64,000 bases of DNA, taken from assembly GCF_024700885.2 (NCBI RefSeq), contig NZ_CP117016.1; one strand, given 5' to 3'. A model generated the notes under the pieces. It ran no database searches. It had not been told where the DNA came from and saw only the letters and a program-made list of their open reading frames with translations. The first letter of the stretch is position 1. The number at the start of each line of letters is the position of its first letter. The stretch is from Escherichia coli (GTDB lineage: Bacteria; Pseudomonadota; Gammaproteobacteria; Enterobacterales; Enterobacteriaceae). Made by a program: the position numbers and the translations under genes. Shown here piece after piece: positions 4,162 to 8,326 of the stretch.

Positions 4162-4470
4162 TCAGTGTGATACCGGTACCCGGGAAAGGTATTCCACCGC
4201 GCGGATAATTGCCGGTGTCACATCCCACCGCCGTTTCAGAACCGGCAACAGCTCATTAAGGTTTCTGATATAACGCTCAGTGAACAGCCGTTGTCCGTCC
4301 CTGGTTAAATGAAAACCTGACTGATTACAGGTAATGGTGATATGACAGGTATCGTTGCCAATATATACGGCTTCCTGGGGTCTGAATCTGACATTCCAGT
4401 ACCAGGAATACGGGGAATGATTAAGATGAAAAAGACGCATCTGAATGTCACTGAATAATGGATTCATCAT
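4162..4470 (-). CDS. hypothetical small protein (~102 aa)
   Basis: ORF track 4162..4572 overlaps the helicase 3' end; internal ATG pair (complement of 4465-4470, MMNPLF...) is the likely start; no clear Shine-Dalgarno. Confidence 0.3.
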   Translation of the reverse strand: MMNPLFSDIQMRLFHLNHSPYSWYWNVRFRPQEAVYIGNDTCHITITCNQSGFHLTRDGQRLFTERYIRNLNELLPVLKRRWDVTPAIIRAVEYLSRVPVSH

Positions 4471-4531
4471 AAATAAAATACACCTGATAATAAAATATAG
4501 TGGAAAACCAGAATAAAGAAATGGTCCGGTA

Positions 4532-6319
4532 TTATGCAAAATCCTCAAGGTGGCGACTGATACTGTTTTCACGGTAACAGGTCACCAGTAATTCACGGGT
4601 TGCCCGGGTGAACGCCACATAAAGCACCGGAATCACTTCAGACTCATCCGCTGCACCAGAGTGCACGAAAGACGCATTGATAACCGCCACATACGGGAAC
4701 TCCAGCCCCTTGCTGCTCTGGTACGTCAGTAAATGCACCACATCCTTACGTCGCGAGTATGTCTTCTTGCCTTCCCTGTCAAAACAGGTGGCAAAAGGTA
4801 CCCCGCGTAGTGTCATAACGTCCTGCAATTGTTGCGCTGAACGCTCTGTCGGACACAGCACAGCCATATCACTCCAGTGACCACACAGGACATGGCGCTT
4901 CTCCAGCCAGTCTGCAACTTGTCTGGCTTCATCACGTTCAGAAGCACAACGCAGGATTTCCGGCTCTGTACCCTCTTCACCGCCCGCCTGTGGCTGAACG
5001 AGCGGTATTTCACGGTTCTGATGTTTTTCAAAATACTCGCGGGAGAATGCATAAGCAAAGTGCAGAATGCGTTTCGGATTACGATAATTGACCGGCAGGA
5101 CAGAAGTGCGTCCCTGTGCCTGAATCCCCACACTGGCCAGAGAAAAGTTCAGGGCCCGCTCCCGCCGGTAAATGGACTGGGCGTCATCGTACATCAGGAG
5201 CAGTGAACGGGATGCGTTATCAAACAGACGGGCAATCAGGGCCAGCCAGCGACTGTCAAAATCATGCCCCTCATCCACCAGTACAGCATCATATCCGGTT
5301 CGGGTGATTTTTCCGCTGTTCACGGCCTCTTCCAGTGCACTGAAGCATTTATCAGGATATTCTTTTCTGTCGGCCGTCACCTTAATACCGTGGCGTTTTA
5401 CCATTGAGGCACACCAGCTGTGAAAATGGGATACCGTAACCCGTGATGCCAGCCCTCTGGCTTCAATGCATTCCCGCAGATAGCTGGCCAGGGTAATGTT
5501 GTAGCACAACACCAGAATCTTTCCGGGTGTGGTTTCAGCCAGGTAAAGGCAACGGAACAAAAGAATCATGGTTTTTCCGGAACCGGCCACACCATGAATG
5601 ACACGATGCCCGTCACCAATATTTCTGGCCAGAATCTCCTGCTGAATATCCATAATTTTGATTTGTGAGTTCTGTTTCACGGTCACTTCAGGAAACAGAT
5701 GGGCGCGCAGAATATCTCTCATCCGGGGTGTCACCCGGGTTCTGAATCCCGTGGTAAACATCCCGGCAATTTTTTGCCGGAATACTTCAGGTAAAACAGA
5801 CTGCGTCATTTCATCCTGGCAGATTGTCTGTGCTGAAGGAAAAATTTTTTCCACCGCATTCTCATCATTCCCTGCCAGTGTCTTCAGTTGCTGACGGGTA
5901 ATGCGGGTAAACACCACACCATACGCCCAGGCCAGGTTCAGCCGTCCCTTATACTGACCGTCATTCTGCCGTAAGCACGGGTTTGCAGGTAAGGCATTAA
6001 CCGTATCACAGGCATAACGACGAACCTGTACCAGCGGATTGATTTCTGATTTCAGAAGACCGTCGGTTTCCAGCGTGACCTGCTCCTGATTTACCTGGCG
6101 CAGCGTGGAAACCGTCCAGTCCTTGACCTCCAGAAATACCAGTCCGTTCTCCGGGTCAATAATGACAAAATCCGGATGCCGGTTTTTCCGTCCCACCGGA
6201 ATATCGTACCAGACAAGGCAGTCATCATTCAGAAAGCTCTCCAGTCGTGAAGCTACCCTCCTCTCCCCGGGCGTCATTCTCTCCTCAGTGGACGCCGATA
6301 CATTTATCAGTTTCGCCAT
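4532..6319 (-). CDS. NERD-domain nuclease fused to SF1 (UvrD-like) helicase, 595 aa
   Basis: N-terminal HPDFVIIDPENGLVFLEVKDW (PD-(D/E)xK-like NERD signature); helicase motifs GVAGSGKT (Walker A), VLVDEGHDF (motif II), YVAFTRATREL (motif VI). Confidence 0.7.
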   Translation of the reverse strand: MAKLINVSASTEERMTPGERRVASRLESFLNDDCLVWYDIPVGRKNRHPDFVIIDPENGLVFLEVKDWTVSTLRQVNQEQVTLETDGLLKSEINPLVQVRRYACDTVNALPANPCLRQNDGQYKGRLNLAWAYGVVFTRITRQQLKTLAGNDENAVEKIFPSAQTICQDEMTQSVLPEVFRQKIAGMFTTGFRTRVTPRMRDILRAHLFPEVTVKQNSQIKIMDIQQEILARNIGDGHRVIHGVAGSGKTMILLFRCLYLAETTPGKILVLCYNITLASYLRECIEARGLASRVTVSHFHSWCASMVKRHGIKVTADRKEYPDKCFSALEEAVNSGKITRTGYDAVLVDEGHDFDSRWLALIARLFDNASRSLLLMYDDAQSIYRRERALNFSLASVGIQAQGRTSVLPVNYRNPKRILHFAYAFSREYFEKHQNREIPLVQPQAGGEEGTEPEILRCASERDEARQVADWLEKRHVLCGHWSDMAVLCPTERSAQQLQDVMTLRGVPFATCFDREGKKTYSRRKDVVHLLTYQSSKGLEFPYVAVINASFVHSGAADESEVIPVLYVAFTRATRELLVTCYRENSISRHLEDFA

Positions 6320-6512
6320 AAACGCACCTTAATCTGTGAACAAAAAAATAATCACCACCGACATCCACGGATGTTATATCGTGGGTATCGCTTTATTCAG
6401 AAATAAAAAACAGAATCATTAACATGACCAGAATACTGTGAACCATGCTGCAGGGTATCTGCAGATATCCCTTCTGTTATATCCGGCCGGGGTAAAATCA
6501 GAACACTGACTG

Positions 6513-7757
6513 TCAGGCAGCTTCATTTTCCGCGTATTCCAGACTCTGCAGGTACTGCAGCGCCGCCGGGTCAGCCACATATTCCACCTGCCCGTGGTGA
6601 CGCTCCACTTCATTAATGATTTTCTCAAGCTTCACGCGGAAAAATTCTTTACGCAGGTTAATCCTGTTAATGCGGTATTTTTCCAGACTGTCATGAAGTG
6701 TTTTTTCCAGCGCAGGCGCATCATCACAGGAAATCATGGCGTGAACATCAAAATCAAACGGAACAGAAGCACCACTTAACTCTTTGACCCTGTCCATGGG
6801 TTCCAGCCGTCGGGTCATGCCAATTTTAAAGACATCCTCACCAAACGAACCAATATTCGAAATGATATAAACATGCCCCTGTTTCGTAAGCTGAGCCATG
6901 GATTTAGCACGTTCATACTGCGCATGCGCTTCCTGAATTTTCTGTTCCAGCTCCAGGCGTTGTTTCTCTAACTCCTCCCTGTGAGCCCCTTCTGCTGCGC
7001 GCAGCGCCTCCTCAATCAGTTTCTGCTGCTCAGCAAGACGCCGTTCTTCCTCTTCCGCTTCCCGCTGGCGCCGTTCAGGTTCATCCTGACGCTCTTTTTC
7101 TTCACGCATCTGACGCTTAAGCTCTGCCTGATATTCCTTCTCTTCCTGCGCTTTTTCCAGCAATGCCACTTTGTCCAGAAACTGTTGCCTGATACTCTCC
7201 CGGTCAGAATTATCTTCCAGGTTAAGAAAGGCTATTTTCTCACTGACAGCAGCGTAAGCCTCTCTTTCCTTACGAAGCTGGTCATATTTGCTTTGCCAGT
7301 TATTAATCGTTACACCAGCCAGCAGAGTCTTCGCCTTAAATTTCCAGGCGGAATCAACAATCCGTTGCATTGCACGGCTGGCCTTCTGTCTGGCGGTATG
7401 AAATTCCTCACGACGTCTGGCCAGTTGCTCCTTTTCCTGTCGTATTCCCCGGGCTATCGCGGCATTGACAGTTTCATTAAAACCCCGCTCTCTCTGAACC
7501 AGCTCTGAAACGGCCTGCTCAAAGGCTGCTGTTTTCTTTCTGAGTCTCCGGTAAATAAAAAAACGAAGTAAAATTGCAAATACAGTAAGCAAACCAAAAA
7601 ACAAACCAATAATACCTGCCGGATTCGATACTGCATCAATAAAGCGCTCATTAAGATTTATCAGCGCCCTGACCGCCACATAAATCCCCCAGAGAATAAC
7701 GCAAACTAAAATCAGGACAAATCCCGCTGCATTATCATCTTTTTTTCCTCCTGCCAT
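6513..7757 (-). CDS. membrane-anchored coiled-coil protein with C-terminal T5orf172/GIY-YIG-like domain (DUF4041-like architecture), 414 aa
   Basis: N-terminal TM helices (FVLILVCVILWGIYV, IIGLFFGLLTVFAILL), long Glu/Arg/Lys-rich coiled-coil region, C-terminal GHVYIISNIGSFGEDVFKIGMTRRLEPMDRVKEL module. Confidence 0.6.
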   Translation of the reverse strand: MAGGKKDDNAAGFVLILVCVILWGIYVAVRALINLNERFIDAVSNPAGIIGLFFGLLTVFAILLRFFIYRRLRKKTAAFEQAVSELVQRERGFNETVNAAIARGIRQEKEQLARRREEFHTARQKASRAMQRIVDSAWKFKAKTLLAGVTINNWQSKYDQLRKEREAYAAVSEKIAFLNLEDNSDRESIRQQFLDKVALLEKAQEEKEYQAELKRQMREEKERQDEPERRQREAEEEERRLAEQQKLIEEALRAAEGAHREELEKQRLELEQKIQEAHAQYERAKSMAQLTKQGHVYIISNIGSFGEDVFKIGMTRRLEPMDRVKELSGASVPFDFDVHAMISCDDAPALEKTLHDSLEKYRINRINLRKEFFRVKLEKIINEVERHHGQVEYVADPAALQYLQSLEYAENEAA

Positions 7758-7912
7758 GACTTTCCTTTATTTTCCTTCTCAGTAACTGAATATCTTTGAT
7801 TAACGCCCTCCGGAAATATTTATACCCGGAAGGTTGTCCGGCTTTATGATGCCAGCCACTACAGGATTAACTGCAGGCTGAGCACAGATTCCTCTGCTAT
7901 TTCAGTGTCAGA

Positions 7913-8326
7913 TTAATACTGATTACCGGAACAAATGGGCAGATGCGTAAATCCGGGTTTGCTGGCCATATAAAGCGGCGCACAGGTAGGGTTGCGGGGT
8001 TCAGTGACCGGCACAGCCTCATTTTTCTCAGCCACCGACGGTTGTGACACCTTCCGGACAGCCGCTGATTTTTCCTTCTGAACCGGCTTCGTGGTGACCG
8101 GTGATTTCACCTGACGTTTGCCGGGTGCCACGCCATAACCAGAACAAAGGCGCTTCGACTGACTCAGACTTCCGTCATTGCAGACAAAACGTCCGTCTGA
8201 CGTACAGTGTGAAATACCACCTTTAGCACCCGAGCAGGGTTTTCTTCCCCGCGCAGCATCTGCCTGAACCGAAAATAAAAGCCCCACGAACAGAAAAAAG
8301 ATAATTTTCTTCATTTTAAAACTCAT
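7913..8326 (-). CDS. hypothetical secreted Cys-containing protein with signal peptide
   Basis: MKKIIFFLFVGLLFSVQADA signal-peptide-like N-terminus (from second Met); several Cys residues; AT-rich start. Confidence 0.45.
   Translation of the reverse strand: MSFKMKKIIFFLFVGLLFSVQADAARGRKPCSGAKGGISHCTSDGRFVCNDGSLSQSKRLCSGYGVAPGKRQVKSPVTTKPVQKEKSAAVRKVSQPSVAEKNEAVPVTEPRNPTCAPLYMASKPGFTHLPICSGNQY

Follow-up and report, generated by a model that had tools for sequence, protein, structure and literature searches.

The window analyzed here, a 64,000-nucleotide stretch of Escherichia coli DNA, carries a T6SS cluster that is the Sci-1 T6SS of EAEC, with a layout identical to that in strain 042. Between the baseplate gene tssE and the gene that a preliminary description named vasL lie four ORFs, which were confirmed at the coordinates given below and are annotated as intact coding sequences in the 100%-identical record NZ_AP022298.1. 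The supposed vasL is more precisely tagA, whose product carries a VasL domain: NCBIfam recognizes a TssA-family N-terminus and PGAP labels ImpA_N and VasL. TagA is an accessory protein of the T6SS and caps sheath extension (PMC6745524, PMC6450956).

Table 1. Features at the tssE–tagA junction, in window coordinates.
Feature	Position	Strand	Evidence
Kiwa-like pair just past tagA (KwaB-like 1132-1962, KwaA-like 1965-2525)	1132..2525	-	PADLOC
TagA (ImpA_N, hydrophobic segment, VasL domain), right-hand anchor	2740..4107	-	NCBIfam, PGAP
orf102, orphan gene of the tagA backbone, outside the insert	4162..4470	-	found beside tagA in empty-site strain
Variable segment (orf137, SNIPE-like gene, NERD-UvrD)	4474..8487	-	comparison with E. 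coli empty site
595-aa NERD (PD-(D/E)xK) nuclease with compact UvrD-type SF1A helicase	4532..6319	-	PADLOC, Pfam, AF2
ops-like GGTAGCTT, 62 nt into the NERD-UvrD ORF	6250..6257	-	pattern search
414-aa SNIPE/PD-Lambda-1-family membrane nuclease	6513..7757	-	PADLOC, Pfam, BLASTP, hhalign, PHROGs
SNIPE-like gene and most of orf137, missing in SW070919	6523..8275	-	blastn of window
orf137, hydrophobic N-terminal leader and YdcA-like N-terminus	7913..8326	-	profile matches
tssE, baseplate gene, left-hand anchor	8471..8905	-	NCBIfam TIGR03357 4.1e-26, over cut-off

The boundaries of the variable segment were set by comparison with E. coli RM14721, whose cluster is otherwise complete but lacks orf137, the SNIPE-like gene and NERD-UvrD. 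In blastn, similarity between the two ends at 4473 and restarts at 8488, and the empty site reads tssE, 95 bp, orf102, tagA. The interruption of the T6SS gene string proposed earlier thus holds for three ORFs and not for the 102-aa ORF, which sits with tagA in the empty-site strain. That ORF is found in only 31 protein clusters, every one from Escherichia, and has no match in PADLOC, NCBIfam or PHROGs. The AT-richness noted by eye is marginal (GC 0.488 for the insert vs 0.53 for the tssE–tssF stretch): NERD-UvrD has the same GC as tssE (0.515), and lower values are confined to the 414-aa gene (0.476) and orf102 (0.463). A search for flanking direct or inverted repeats, an integrase or an Rfam element marking the insert found none.

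The 414-aa protein was examined with the profile searches suggested in the preliminary description. A T5orf172/GIY-YIG nuclease at aa 294–386 (Pfam T5orf172 9.8e-17, MUG113 1e-18) and two hydrophobic segments at aa ~7–36 and ~42–70, predicted to form a hairpin, agree with the membrane-anchored nuclease described before; between them lie a conserved helical middle domain (aa ~125–200) and a coiled-coil linker. PADLOC gave PD-Lambda-1 matches of 5e-88 and 5.4e-82, and phrog_8430 covers the full length (1.6e-129). The linker and nuclease (aa 211–406) are 53% identical in BLASTP to the canonical 500-aa SNIPE, a protein whose DUF4041 and T5orf172 coordinates are those published for PD-lambda-1. In hhalign, residues 132–407 pair with 197–471 of the canonical protein. 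E351 corresponds to the essential catalytic E414 of SNIPE. However, Pfam detects no DUF4041 in the 414-aa protein, its middle region searched alone does not match the canonical SNIPE family, and BLAST finds no alignment to canonical SNIPE for its first 210 aa. By its sequence matches, the protein belongs to an already described family, validated in 2022 as PD-lambda-1, which acts as a single gene (PMC9519451), and worked out mechanistically as SNIPE in 2025 (bioRxiv 10.1101/2025.11.03.685801). Membrane anchoring is a defining trait of SNIPE, with two TM segments in 7% of homologues, and its defence requires the DUF4041 domain. The label "undescribed" therefore fails for this gene; NERD-UvrD is, as suspected in the preliminary description, still an unvalidated candidate.

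Upstream of the SNIPE-like gene, orf137 encodes a hydrophobic segment at aa 7–26, in keeping with the signal peptide predicted earlier. It matches NCBIfam PRK10040 at 3.6e-25, under the cut-off, and phrog_6000 at 3e-20, and Pfam YdcA is found on orthologues of 60–65% identity. These orthologues adjoin the SNIPE-like gene in Enterobacter, Citrobacter, Pantoea, Salmonella and Tenebrionibacter and are absent from its loci in Serratia and Hafnia, and orf137 is thus an optional companion.

For the 595-aa protein, Pfam matches to NERD (6.4e-10), UvrD-helicase, UvrD_C and AAA_19 bear out the proposed fusion, and PADLOC C3a187 matches the full length (1e-139), with weaker matches to GajB (down to 2.8e-21) and RTasNERD-Hel (6.3e-15). 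Motif conservation was scored on a 30-sequence family alignment reaching down to 26% identity. Of the NERD residues, D50 and E64 never vary and K66 is conserved at 90% or above; Walker A (G243/G246/G248/K249/T250), Walker B (D349/E350), Q381, Y412/R413, K537/G538 and T571/R572 are invariant as well. Both the nuclease and the helicase halves are predicted to be active. An AF2 model (pLDDT 85.9) has UvrD, PcrA and Rep as its closest solved folds, with AddA also among the structural matches. The start at 6319 is supported over the 6277 chosen by PGAP, because an N-terminal Met-Ala is kept family-wide and the first codons are common to several genera. NERD and PD-(D/E)xK domains are reported to be enriched in defence islands, and no published experimental test of this fusion was found in the literature; it stays an unvalidated defence candidate. 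Both large proteins resemble immunity proteins, as had been proposed.

The preliminary description regarded conservation of these genes in most loci of the T6SS subtype, with matching GC, as evidence against it. Related bacteria do carry cassette genes between tssE and tagA, but among 80 species-level loci with the same type of T6SS just 8 hold any part of the cassette, in every combination and as remnants, so the genes remain accessory DNA within the cluster, though their GC is near that of the core. In the other loci, about nine in ten, tagA follows tssE directly or after a p156 gene. Within E. coli the junction exists in empty, NERD-only and full states; among 5426 complete genomes, 141 carry the SNIPE-like gene and 614 carry NERD-UvrD at ≥80% coverage.

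The suggested nuclease–helicase pairing would make the two large proteins one two-component defence system with Gabija- or Hachiman-like logic. The two genes do lie side by side with the same orientation in E. coli, Serratia, Citrobacter, Pectobacterium, Hafnia and one MAG, and their cross-genus identities rank alike. However, each gene occurs at the junction without the other: the SNIPE-like gene in Enterobacter, Salmonella arizonae, Tenebrionibacter, Serratia inhibens and Pantoea, and NERD-UvrD in E. coli SW070919 and AZ162 and in Cedecea, there beside a SNIPE-like remnant. IncF plasmids carry a ~93% identical NERD-UvrD adjoining RelE/ParE and no SNIPE-like gene. NERD-UvrD also has its own nuclease, and the characterised PD-lambda-1 needs no partner. 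We consider a joint system very unlikely.

Loss and damage are frequent: NERD-UvrD is cut by IS66 in O157:H7 and relatives, one copy is frameshifted, and remnants persist in Cedecea and E. coli JX21CE8. SW070919 keeps NERD-UvrD only, and its gap looks like a deletion scar because ~50 nt from the start of orf137 and ~10 nt from the end of the SNIPE-like gene remain. Such decay would fit inert passengers or remnants kept only by linkage to tagA, but the ORFs are full-length with invariant catalytic residues across genera despite saturated synonymous divergence, and the SNIPE-like protein is as conserved as TssF. All four ORFs are under purifying selection (dN/dS 0.03–0.31; 0.05–0.25 for the 414-aa gene and 0.03–0.10 for orf102), with cassette values of 0.05–0.13 across genera and 0.13–0.31 within E. 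coli. The passenger account is highly improbable. A recent insertion was rejected, because the cassette genes have diverged together with tssE and tagA from genus to genus, with synonymous sites at saturation.

The constancy of this position could instead mean that the genes encode genuine Tag-like accessory components of the T6SS, or products functionally linked to TagA; the membrane nuclease and the helicase-nuclease would then act during or after firing, for example on DNA at the membrane, with TagA or the T6SS membrane complex as their partner. The 414-aa subfamily lies directly upstream of (NERD-UvrD-)TagA in 7/7 cross-genus samples, the genes stay beside tagA in loci that have lost the T6SS core, they co-diverge with tssE and tagA, the whole tail block has been swapped between T6SS core clades, and in several genera the end of the NERD-UvrD reading frame overlaps the beginning of tagA. 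A preprint on EAEC reports that the tssE–tagA stretch, termed "accessory genes," is co-transcribed with the T6SS operon, that an ops2 element between EC042_4547 and EC042_4548 gives RfaH-dependent read-through, and that its mutation impairs sheath assembly. The ops-like site in NERD-UvrD is probably this ops2; the pattern search showed no overall enrichment of the motif in the window. The EAEC 042 genes RS24280 to RS24290 probably correspond to the old tags EC042_4546 to 4548. However, lower tagA transcription accounts for the ops2 phenotype, most loci of this type and the otherwise complete RM14721 cluster do without the genes, the characterised protein closest to the 414-aa one is an anti-phage nuclease, and phage and plasmid homologues exist without any T6SS. 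A T6SS function is therefore unlikely.

We favour, at a probability of about 60%, the reading that the tssE–tagA junction is an old, dispensable defence islet of independent single-gene modules within the T6SS cluster. Behind it stand the homology to a validated anti-phage system, intact catalytic motifs, purifying selection, variable presence at the junction, the independence of the modules and relatives on a phage and on plasmids. The Kiwa-like pair (KwaA 3e-10, KwaB 2.4e-12 in PADLOC; no match in a Pfam-A search), strongly AT-rich at GC 0.34–0.35, belongs to the same defence neighbourhood. Serratia has the same pair after TagA (69% and 58% identity), and Hafnia and Citrobacter have a Pfam KwaA/KwaB pair there without a BLAST match to that of the window; AIPR, a JetD remnant and KAP and AAA NTPases are further defence-type neighbours past tagA. 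Several observations count against the defence reading: the undetectable DUF4041, the fixed place upstream of TagA with co-divergence (defence genes usually change contexts), the overlap of NERD-UvrD with tagA in several genera, the RfaH-dependent read-through in EAEC, and four distant NERD-UvrD homologues surrounded by housekeeping genes and not by defence islands.

Under the islet reading, we infer an anti-phage or anti-MGE activity, a membrane topology and a mechanism. The two-helix hairpin would hold the SNIPE-like nuclease in the inner membrane with its GIY-YIG/T5orf172 domain in the cytoplasm, where, like SNIPE, it most likely cleaves entering phage DNA; its divergent N-terminal and middle region may set the choice of phages or entry routes, and orf137, as an optional periplasmic YdcA-like partner, may aid it. 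NERD-UvrD most likely loads onto foreign or replicating DNA and would translocate 3'-5' as an SF1A helicase while its N-terminal PD-(D/E)xK nuclease degrades the DNA, a design seen in Nhi and AddA/RecB.

In common with the window protein, SNIPE/PD-lambda-1 of E. coli ECOR26 has a membrane anchor at its N-terminus and a long helical linker that leads to a GIY-YIG/T5orf172 nuclease at its C-terminus, but it has one hydrophobic segment, 500 aa and DUF4041, against two segments and 414 aa, and is located in a lambdoid prophage instead of a T6SS tail module beside tagA. The nearest relatives outside T6SS clusters are phrog_8430 and L22 of phage phiP27 (NP_543074.1), 63% identical over aa 117–413, middle domain included. 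L22 differs in its N-terminal ~100 aa and is phage-borne, with a Q-like antiterminator and a DNA methyltransferase on either side and stx2e downstream. C3a187 "NERD+UvrD" is the same family as the 595-aa protein by full-length HMM; it was defined as type III CRISPR accessory cluster 187 purely in silico, from its co-location with type III cas cassettes (Shah 2019, PMC6546367), whereas the locus annotation shows no cas genes near NERD-UvrD. GajB of Gabija, a UvrD-type helicase serving defence, and the RT-associated NERD-helicase fusion of UG34 DRTs (PMC9226505) are alike at the superfamily level only, and neither GajA nor a reverse-transcriptase partner adjoins NERD-UvrD in the window. Staphylococcal Nhi, often on plasmids, joins an N-terminal PD-(D/E)xK nuclease to an SF1 helicase in one polypeptide, and its immunity requires both activities (bioRxiv 10.1101/776245). 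It may be a model for NERD-UvrD action by analogy, with no significant sequence-family link: its helicase is Dda/Upf1-like (DUF2075, SF1B), whereas that of the window is UvrD/PcrA/Rep-like (SF1A) with a NERD-type nuclease. AddA/RecB likewise fuse a UvrD-like SF1A motor to a PD-(D/E)xK nuclease and degrade DNA during translocation, but as large multi-subunit enzymes with a C-terminal nuclease and Chi recognition, whereas NERD-UvrD is a compact 595-aa protein with its nuclease at the N-terminus.

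Two of the genes between tssE and tagA in this T6SS cluster, one for a 414-aa SNIPE-like protein and one for a 595-aa NERD-UvrD fusion, are most likely defence genes, because the first belongs to the SNIPE family and the second has an immunity-type architecture, because they are dispensable, often lost and separable from each other, because relatives are found on phage and plasmids, and because the neighbours past tagA are of defence type (Kiwa-like, AIPR, a JetD remnant, and KAP and AAA NTPases). With orf137, the gene for a YdcA-like small protein, they form the cassette considered here. 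The preliminary description had proposed an undescribed nuclease-helicase defence module of four inserted ORFs; the defence interpretation stands, but one gene belongs to a described family, the two are not a pair and the insert is not fresh. All four ORFs lie on the minus strand as intact CDSs in the annotation, and dN/dS values of 0.03-0.31 for each indicate genuine genes.

The region is 100% identical to the chromosome of E. coli BEC1-S17-ESBL-09, and its gene order is that of EAEC strain 042, where the tssE, tssJ, tssG, tssF and tssA products have identical protein accessions. On the basis of tli1 and a PAAR gene, the cluster is the Sci-1 T6SS, which is the main model for T6SS assembly. 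The gene earlier called vasL encodes TagA (455 aa, with ImpA_N, a hydrophobic segment and a VasL domain), an accessory protein that holds the distal sheath end (PMC6745524, PMC6450956). The tagA ORF is intact, yet RefSeq/PGAP splits it into three pseudogene fragments, one of them 'POTRA domain-containing'. A 128-nt segment of it recurs, at ~97% identity, among 'POTRA' fragments of many E. coli genomes, in which nothing else in the 7-kb query matched. Between tssF and tssA, an AT-rich multi-TM ORF (GC 0.396) may be a second insertion within the cluster. Serratia and Enterobacter clusters are without this ORF and have tssA adjoining tssF, the sole distant homologue found was from Cedecea neteri (34%), and searches of PADLOC, NCBIfam and PHROG returned no match. 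Promoter and terminator scans gave sites no more frequent than in shuffled controls and are therefore uninformative on transcription units.

Features of the tssE-tagA region and of compared loci (window positions unless another sequence is named)
Feature	Position	Strand	Remark
Strain-variable island	<1-1091	-	in AZ162 (L002), 1-4744
Kiwa-like pair	1132-2525	-	PADLOC KwaA 3e-10, KwaB 2.4e-12; KwaA-KwaB order; GC 0.34-0.35
tagA	2740-4107	-	includes 'POTRA'-like segment, 3305-3432
orf102	4162-4470	-	102-aa ORF
Extra DNA relative to RM14721	4474-8487		
NERD-UvrD	4532-6319	-	595 aa
ops-like GGTAGCTT	6250-6257	-	5' end of NERD-UvrD ORF
SNIPE-like gene	6513-7757	-	414 aa
Segment missing in SW070919	6523-8275		
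orf137	7913-8326	-	137 aa
tssE	8471-8905		
Multi-TM ORF	12248-13045	-	between tssF and tssA
156-aa protein gene	L012:4991-5461; L097:3932-4402		L097, Citrobacter
218-aa protein gene	L097:9518-10174; L096:9501-10157		L096, Hafnia
T6SS remnant of JX21CE8 (L106)	NZ_CP178438.1 2313382-2325878		

The tssE-tagA junction occurs in three states in E. coli. All three cassette genes are present in the window, in 042 and in other E. coli. The RM14721 junction consists of tssE, 95 bp, orf102 and tagA, without any cassette gene; the extra DNA of the window is therefore bounded as listed in the table and orf102 is a backbone gene, which leaves three variable genes of the four-ORF insert first proposed. In SW070919 the order is tssE, NERD-UvrD, orf102 and tagA, with short ends of orf137 and of the 414-aa gene retained, and the loss looks like a deletion scar. 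Some strains without the T6SS core keep NERD-UvrD, orf102 and tagA, or the four ORFs and tagA, and in these CDI toxin remnants or other islands abut the retained genes. Among 5426 complete E. coli genomes, the 414-aa gene was found in 141, NERD-UvrD at a coverage of at least 80% in 614 (about 11%), and window-type tssE/tssJ in 65-120; O157:H7 and its relatives carry a NERD-UvrD truncated by IS66. Repeat, integrase and Rfam checks of the insert borders found no meaningful repeats, integrase or RNA element, and the AT-richness suspected by eye was right in direction but slight (GC 0.488 vs 0.53). The orf102 gene was found in Escherichia only, and its product had no match in PADLOC, NCBIfam or PHROGs. 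JX21CE8 has a second, IS1-truncated T6SS remnant near glcA/glcB; besides tssE it comprises a SNIPE-like gene that is truncated (78% nt identity) and a VasL/TagA gene, followed by a fragment of Wadjet JetD and a number of toxin-antitoxin pairs.

PD-Lambda-1, renamed SNIPE in 2025, is a GIY-YIG nuclease of the inner membrane and cuts lambda DNA as it is being injected. It requires E414 and also DUF4041, which is needed both to defend and to bind DNA; specificity is believed to lie in its variable N-terminal regions, and 7% of its homologues have two TM segments (bioRxiv 10.1101/2025.11.03.685801). The DUF4041 region is thought to bind DNA and phage tape-measure proteins. Rather than being undescribed, the 414-aa protein falls in this PADLOC family (PDLC03976, 5e-88, aa 201-412; PDLC03977, 5.4e-82, aa 125-412), and it also matches phrog_1847 (1.8e-96, aa 120-412). 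Its earlier reading as a membrane protein with a T5orf172 module agrees with Pfam T5orf172 (9.8e-17) and MUG113 (1e-18) and with two predicted TM segments (aa 7-36 and 42-70, Kyte-Doolittle) that are helical in the AF2 model, pointing to a putative N-terminal anchor of SNIPE type with two segments, not one. The reference was a canonical 500-aa copy from an E. coli prophage, in which DUF4041 (198-252) and T5orf172 (357-449) lie at the published coordinates. BLASTP aligned aa 211-406 with residues 274-470 of this copy at 53% identity, E351 aligns with the catalytic E414, and E351 is conserved in at least 90% of a 16-sequence family alignment. Residues 1-210 gave no BLAST alignment to the canonical copy, and the canonical protein scores Pfam DUF4041 at 1.2e-19, whereas the 414-aa protein had no match to it even at E<=10 and none from PGAP. 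Three full-length profile alignments are collinear through aa 120-200; the middle region by itself gave an hhalign E of 0.17 against canonical DUF4041 and no phrog_1847 match. This region is the best conserved outside the nuclease in the subfamily alignment, and L22 of phage phiP27, located near stx2e, is 63% identical over aa 117-413, middle region included. The AF2 model from the 16 sequences was too poor for a fold search (pLDDT 57.5, pTM 0.26), and a PDB sequence search returned no match. By its sequence, the protein is a SNIPE-family relative in a distinct subfamily. The adjacent orf137 product has the N-terminal hydrophobic leader expected of the signal peptide first called there, as well as a YdcA-like N-terminus.

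The domain assignment of the 595-aa protein was likewise borne out, with Pfam NERD (6.4e-10), UvrD-helicase, UvrD_C and UvrD_C_2 matches. Across 30 aligned family members, with identities as low as 26%, D50 and E64 of the nuclease never vary and K66 is kept in at least 90%; the helicase likewise has an invariant Walker A (G243/G246/G248/K249/T250), an invariant Walker B (D349/E350) and invariant motifs III to VI. The AF2 model is confident (pLDDT 85.9), and the solved folds that match it best are UvrD, PcrA and Rep, followed by SLFN11, Upf1 and AddA. Copies at about 93% identity stand alone on E. coli IncF plasmids, adjoining RelE/ParE, and others, about 41% identical, are found on plasmids of Vibrio and on the Ralstonia megaplasmid. 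Four distant homologues with housekeeping neighbours on short contigs support no case for or against defence. Literature searches, one of them clouded by medical "NERD" and "NHI" homonyms, found no experimental paper on the family. Should NERD-UvrD prove protective, it would be a frequent defence system of one gene that relies on the chemistry of an SF1A helicase.

Many Enterobacterales have homologues of the 414-aa protein (74-79% identity), and in all seven cross-genus contexts looked up (Serratia, Enterobacter, Pectobacterium, Hafnia, Citrobacter, Pantoea and one further Enterobacteriaceae) the homologue's gene is immediately followed by TagA, or by NERD-UvrD and then TagA. The fullest gene order is tssE, p156, YdcA-like, SNIPE-like, NERD-UvrD, TagA, p218, KwaA and KwaB, and the NERD-UvrD stop overlaps the tagA start in several genera. 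This linkage to tagA is the one surprising element, and such unusual fidelity counts against defence and leaves some room for a T6SS-linked role of the cassette. However, a species-level scan (one genome per species, a TssE alignment as query) recovered cassette parts in only 8 of 80 loci, with every combination and remnants among those eight, and in most of the 80 tagA follows tssE directly or after a conserved 156-aa gene. Conservation in most T6SS loci of the same type, which the preliminary description had held would speak against defence, is therefore not what was found. Together with the E. coli RM14721 cluster, which does without all three genes, this distribution argues against a T6SS accessory (Tag) gene. 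No published deletions of the cassette genes were found.

Each gene occurs independently, which contradicts the idea that nuclease and helicase constitute one two-gene system. Between genera, synonymous sites are saturated, as in core T6SS genes, and the cassette dN/dS is 0.05-0.13; the cassette is a long-standing part of the T6SS tail module and not a fresh insert, and its association with the T6SS, judged from this divergence, is old. Inert hitch-hiking is contradicted by the purifying selection on its genes. Pairwise identities indicate that tssE, orf137, the SNIPE-like gene, NERD-UvrD and tagA evolve together as a single unit, and that this tssE-tagA block has been exchanged between two deeply split T6SS core clades. 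Citrobacter and a MAG share 62% in TssF and 48% in TssG, against 91% in TssE, 95% in the SNIPE-like protein, 96% in NERD-UvrD and 90% in TagA. Between the two core clades TssF diverges by ~38% and TssG by ~50%, yet their tail blocks are 90-96% identical (L097 vs L084, and others), which indicates recombination between tssG/tssJ and tssE. The 156-aa protein, conserved after tssE in about half of the enterobacterial loci with the same type of T6SS (~37 of loci L014-L093) and without a Pfam family, is likely the product of an unnamed T6SS accessory gene; E. coli Sci-1 is without this gene and has the unrelated orf102 before tagA instead. The 218-aa protein, also without a Pfam family, is encoded between TagA and KwaA in Citrobacter and Hafnia and after TagA in several other loci, and its Pectobacterium copy is truncated to 60 aa.

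According to an EAEC preprint (10.1101/2025.02.08.637259), the signal of a reporter placed between EC042_4548 and EC042_4549 is lost when ops1, ops2 or rfaH is mutated, and sheath assembly suffers from the ops2 mutation. By this account the cassette is transcribed with the T6SS operon, a further point for a T6SS-linked role. The only nearby coding-strand GGTAGNNT lies 62 nt inside the 595-aa ORF and, by our mapping, is probably the RfaH 'ops2' of the preprint. It is common to the E. coli chromosomal and IncF plasmid copies of NERD-UvrD and was not found in the Serratia, Citrobacter, Pectobacterium, Hafnia or Cedecea copies, so it is no conserved adaptation of the cassette. The sheath phenotype is most simply read as a polarity effect on tagA. 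We regard a T6SS-linked role as unlikely, and defence as the most likely function of the SNIPE-like and NERD-UvrD genes.

The KwaA-like protein of the Kiwa-like pair beyond tagA has hydrophobic segments, and a Pfam-A scan matched neither protein of the pair. Serratia has the same pair after TagA (69% and 58% identity), and Hafnia and Citrobacter have another, Pfam KwaA/KwaB pair there without a BLAST match to that of the window. The island beyond tagA varies by strain and is often defence-like, examples being a TerB-N/ATPase/DEAD helicase trio, an 893-aa AAA protein and a KAP NTPase. Constant beside it are IbrB, PerC and an IbrA-like PAPS reductase, whose gene extends past the window start.

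A bolder proposal is that the SNIPE-like nuclease, with or without NERD-UvrD and the YdcA-like partner, serves immunity as a module coupled to the T6SS and not as a free-standing one. It is suggested because the SNIPE-like gene has been kept beside tagA throughout the divergence of the enterobacterial tail module, changes core clade only in company with tssE and tagA, and is reportedly transcribed as part of the T6SS operon. The positional or activating cue would come from TagA or the envelope complex of the T6SS, and the module would destroy DNA entering at envelope puncture sites or, alternatively, DNA released by T6SS killing of neighbours. We give this proposal roughly one chance in eight; if true, it would connect interbacterial weaponry directly with nucleic-acid immunity. 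The strict tagA linkage and RfaH-dependent co-expression also raise the question of whether defence and T6SS activity are deliberately co-regulated. EAEC 042 and 17-2 are the main model strains for T6SS mechanics, and in them the cassette genes have so far been treated as anonymous "accessory genes", for which the SNIPE-family and Nhi-like identities offer testable functions in a genetically tractable strain.

Compared with SNIPE, the 414-aa protein shares the GIY-YIG/T5orf172 C-terminus, the aligned catalytic glutamate and the family-profile match; its subfamily keeps the linker and nuclease, but the N-terminal half, apparently with the DUF4041 region, is replaced, and the subfamily thus offers a natural test of what determines SNIPE specificity. 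For NERD-UvrD, the only strong hit among the best 25 of 35 PADLOC matches was C3a187 (PDLC01087, 1e-139, aa 1-594 vs profile 1-556 of 559), and weaker ones among the same 25 were GajB and an RT-associated NERD-helicase. The C3a187 label comes from a list, compiled computationally in 2018, of genes located close to type III CRISPR cassettes (PMC6546367). NERD-UvrD matches this family over its full length, but it is surrounded by T6SS genes, the SNIPE-like gene, orf102 and tagA. A type III CRISPR accessory role was rejected, with no cas genes in the 23-kb annotated region, and so was Gabija, since the GajB-type helicase matches are accompanied by no neighbouring GajA-like (ATPase-TOPRIM/OLD) gene. 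Like Nhi, NERD-UvrD is a single protein with an N-terminal PD-(D/E)xK nuclease and an SF1 helicase. However, the Nhi helicase, described as Dda-like/DUF2075 (bioRxiv 10.1101/776245), is Dda/Upf1-like (SF1B), whereas that of NERD-UvrD is UvrD-like and matches SLFN-g3/DUF2075 only at E 0.012, and membership of the Nhi family was therefore rejected. Nhi is thus the closest working model for NERD-UvrD by analogy, the likeness being one of design and not of family.
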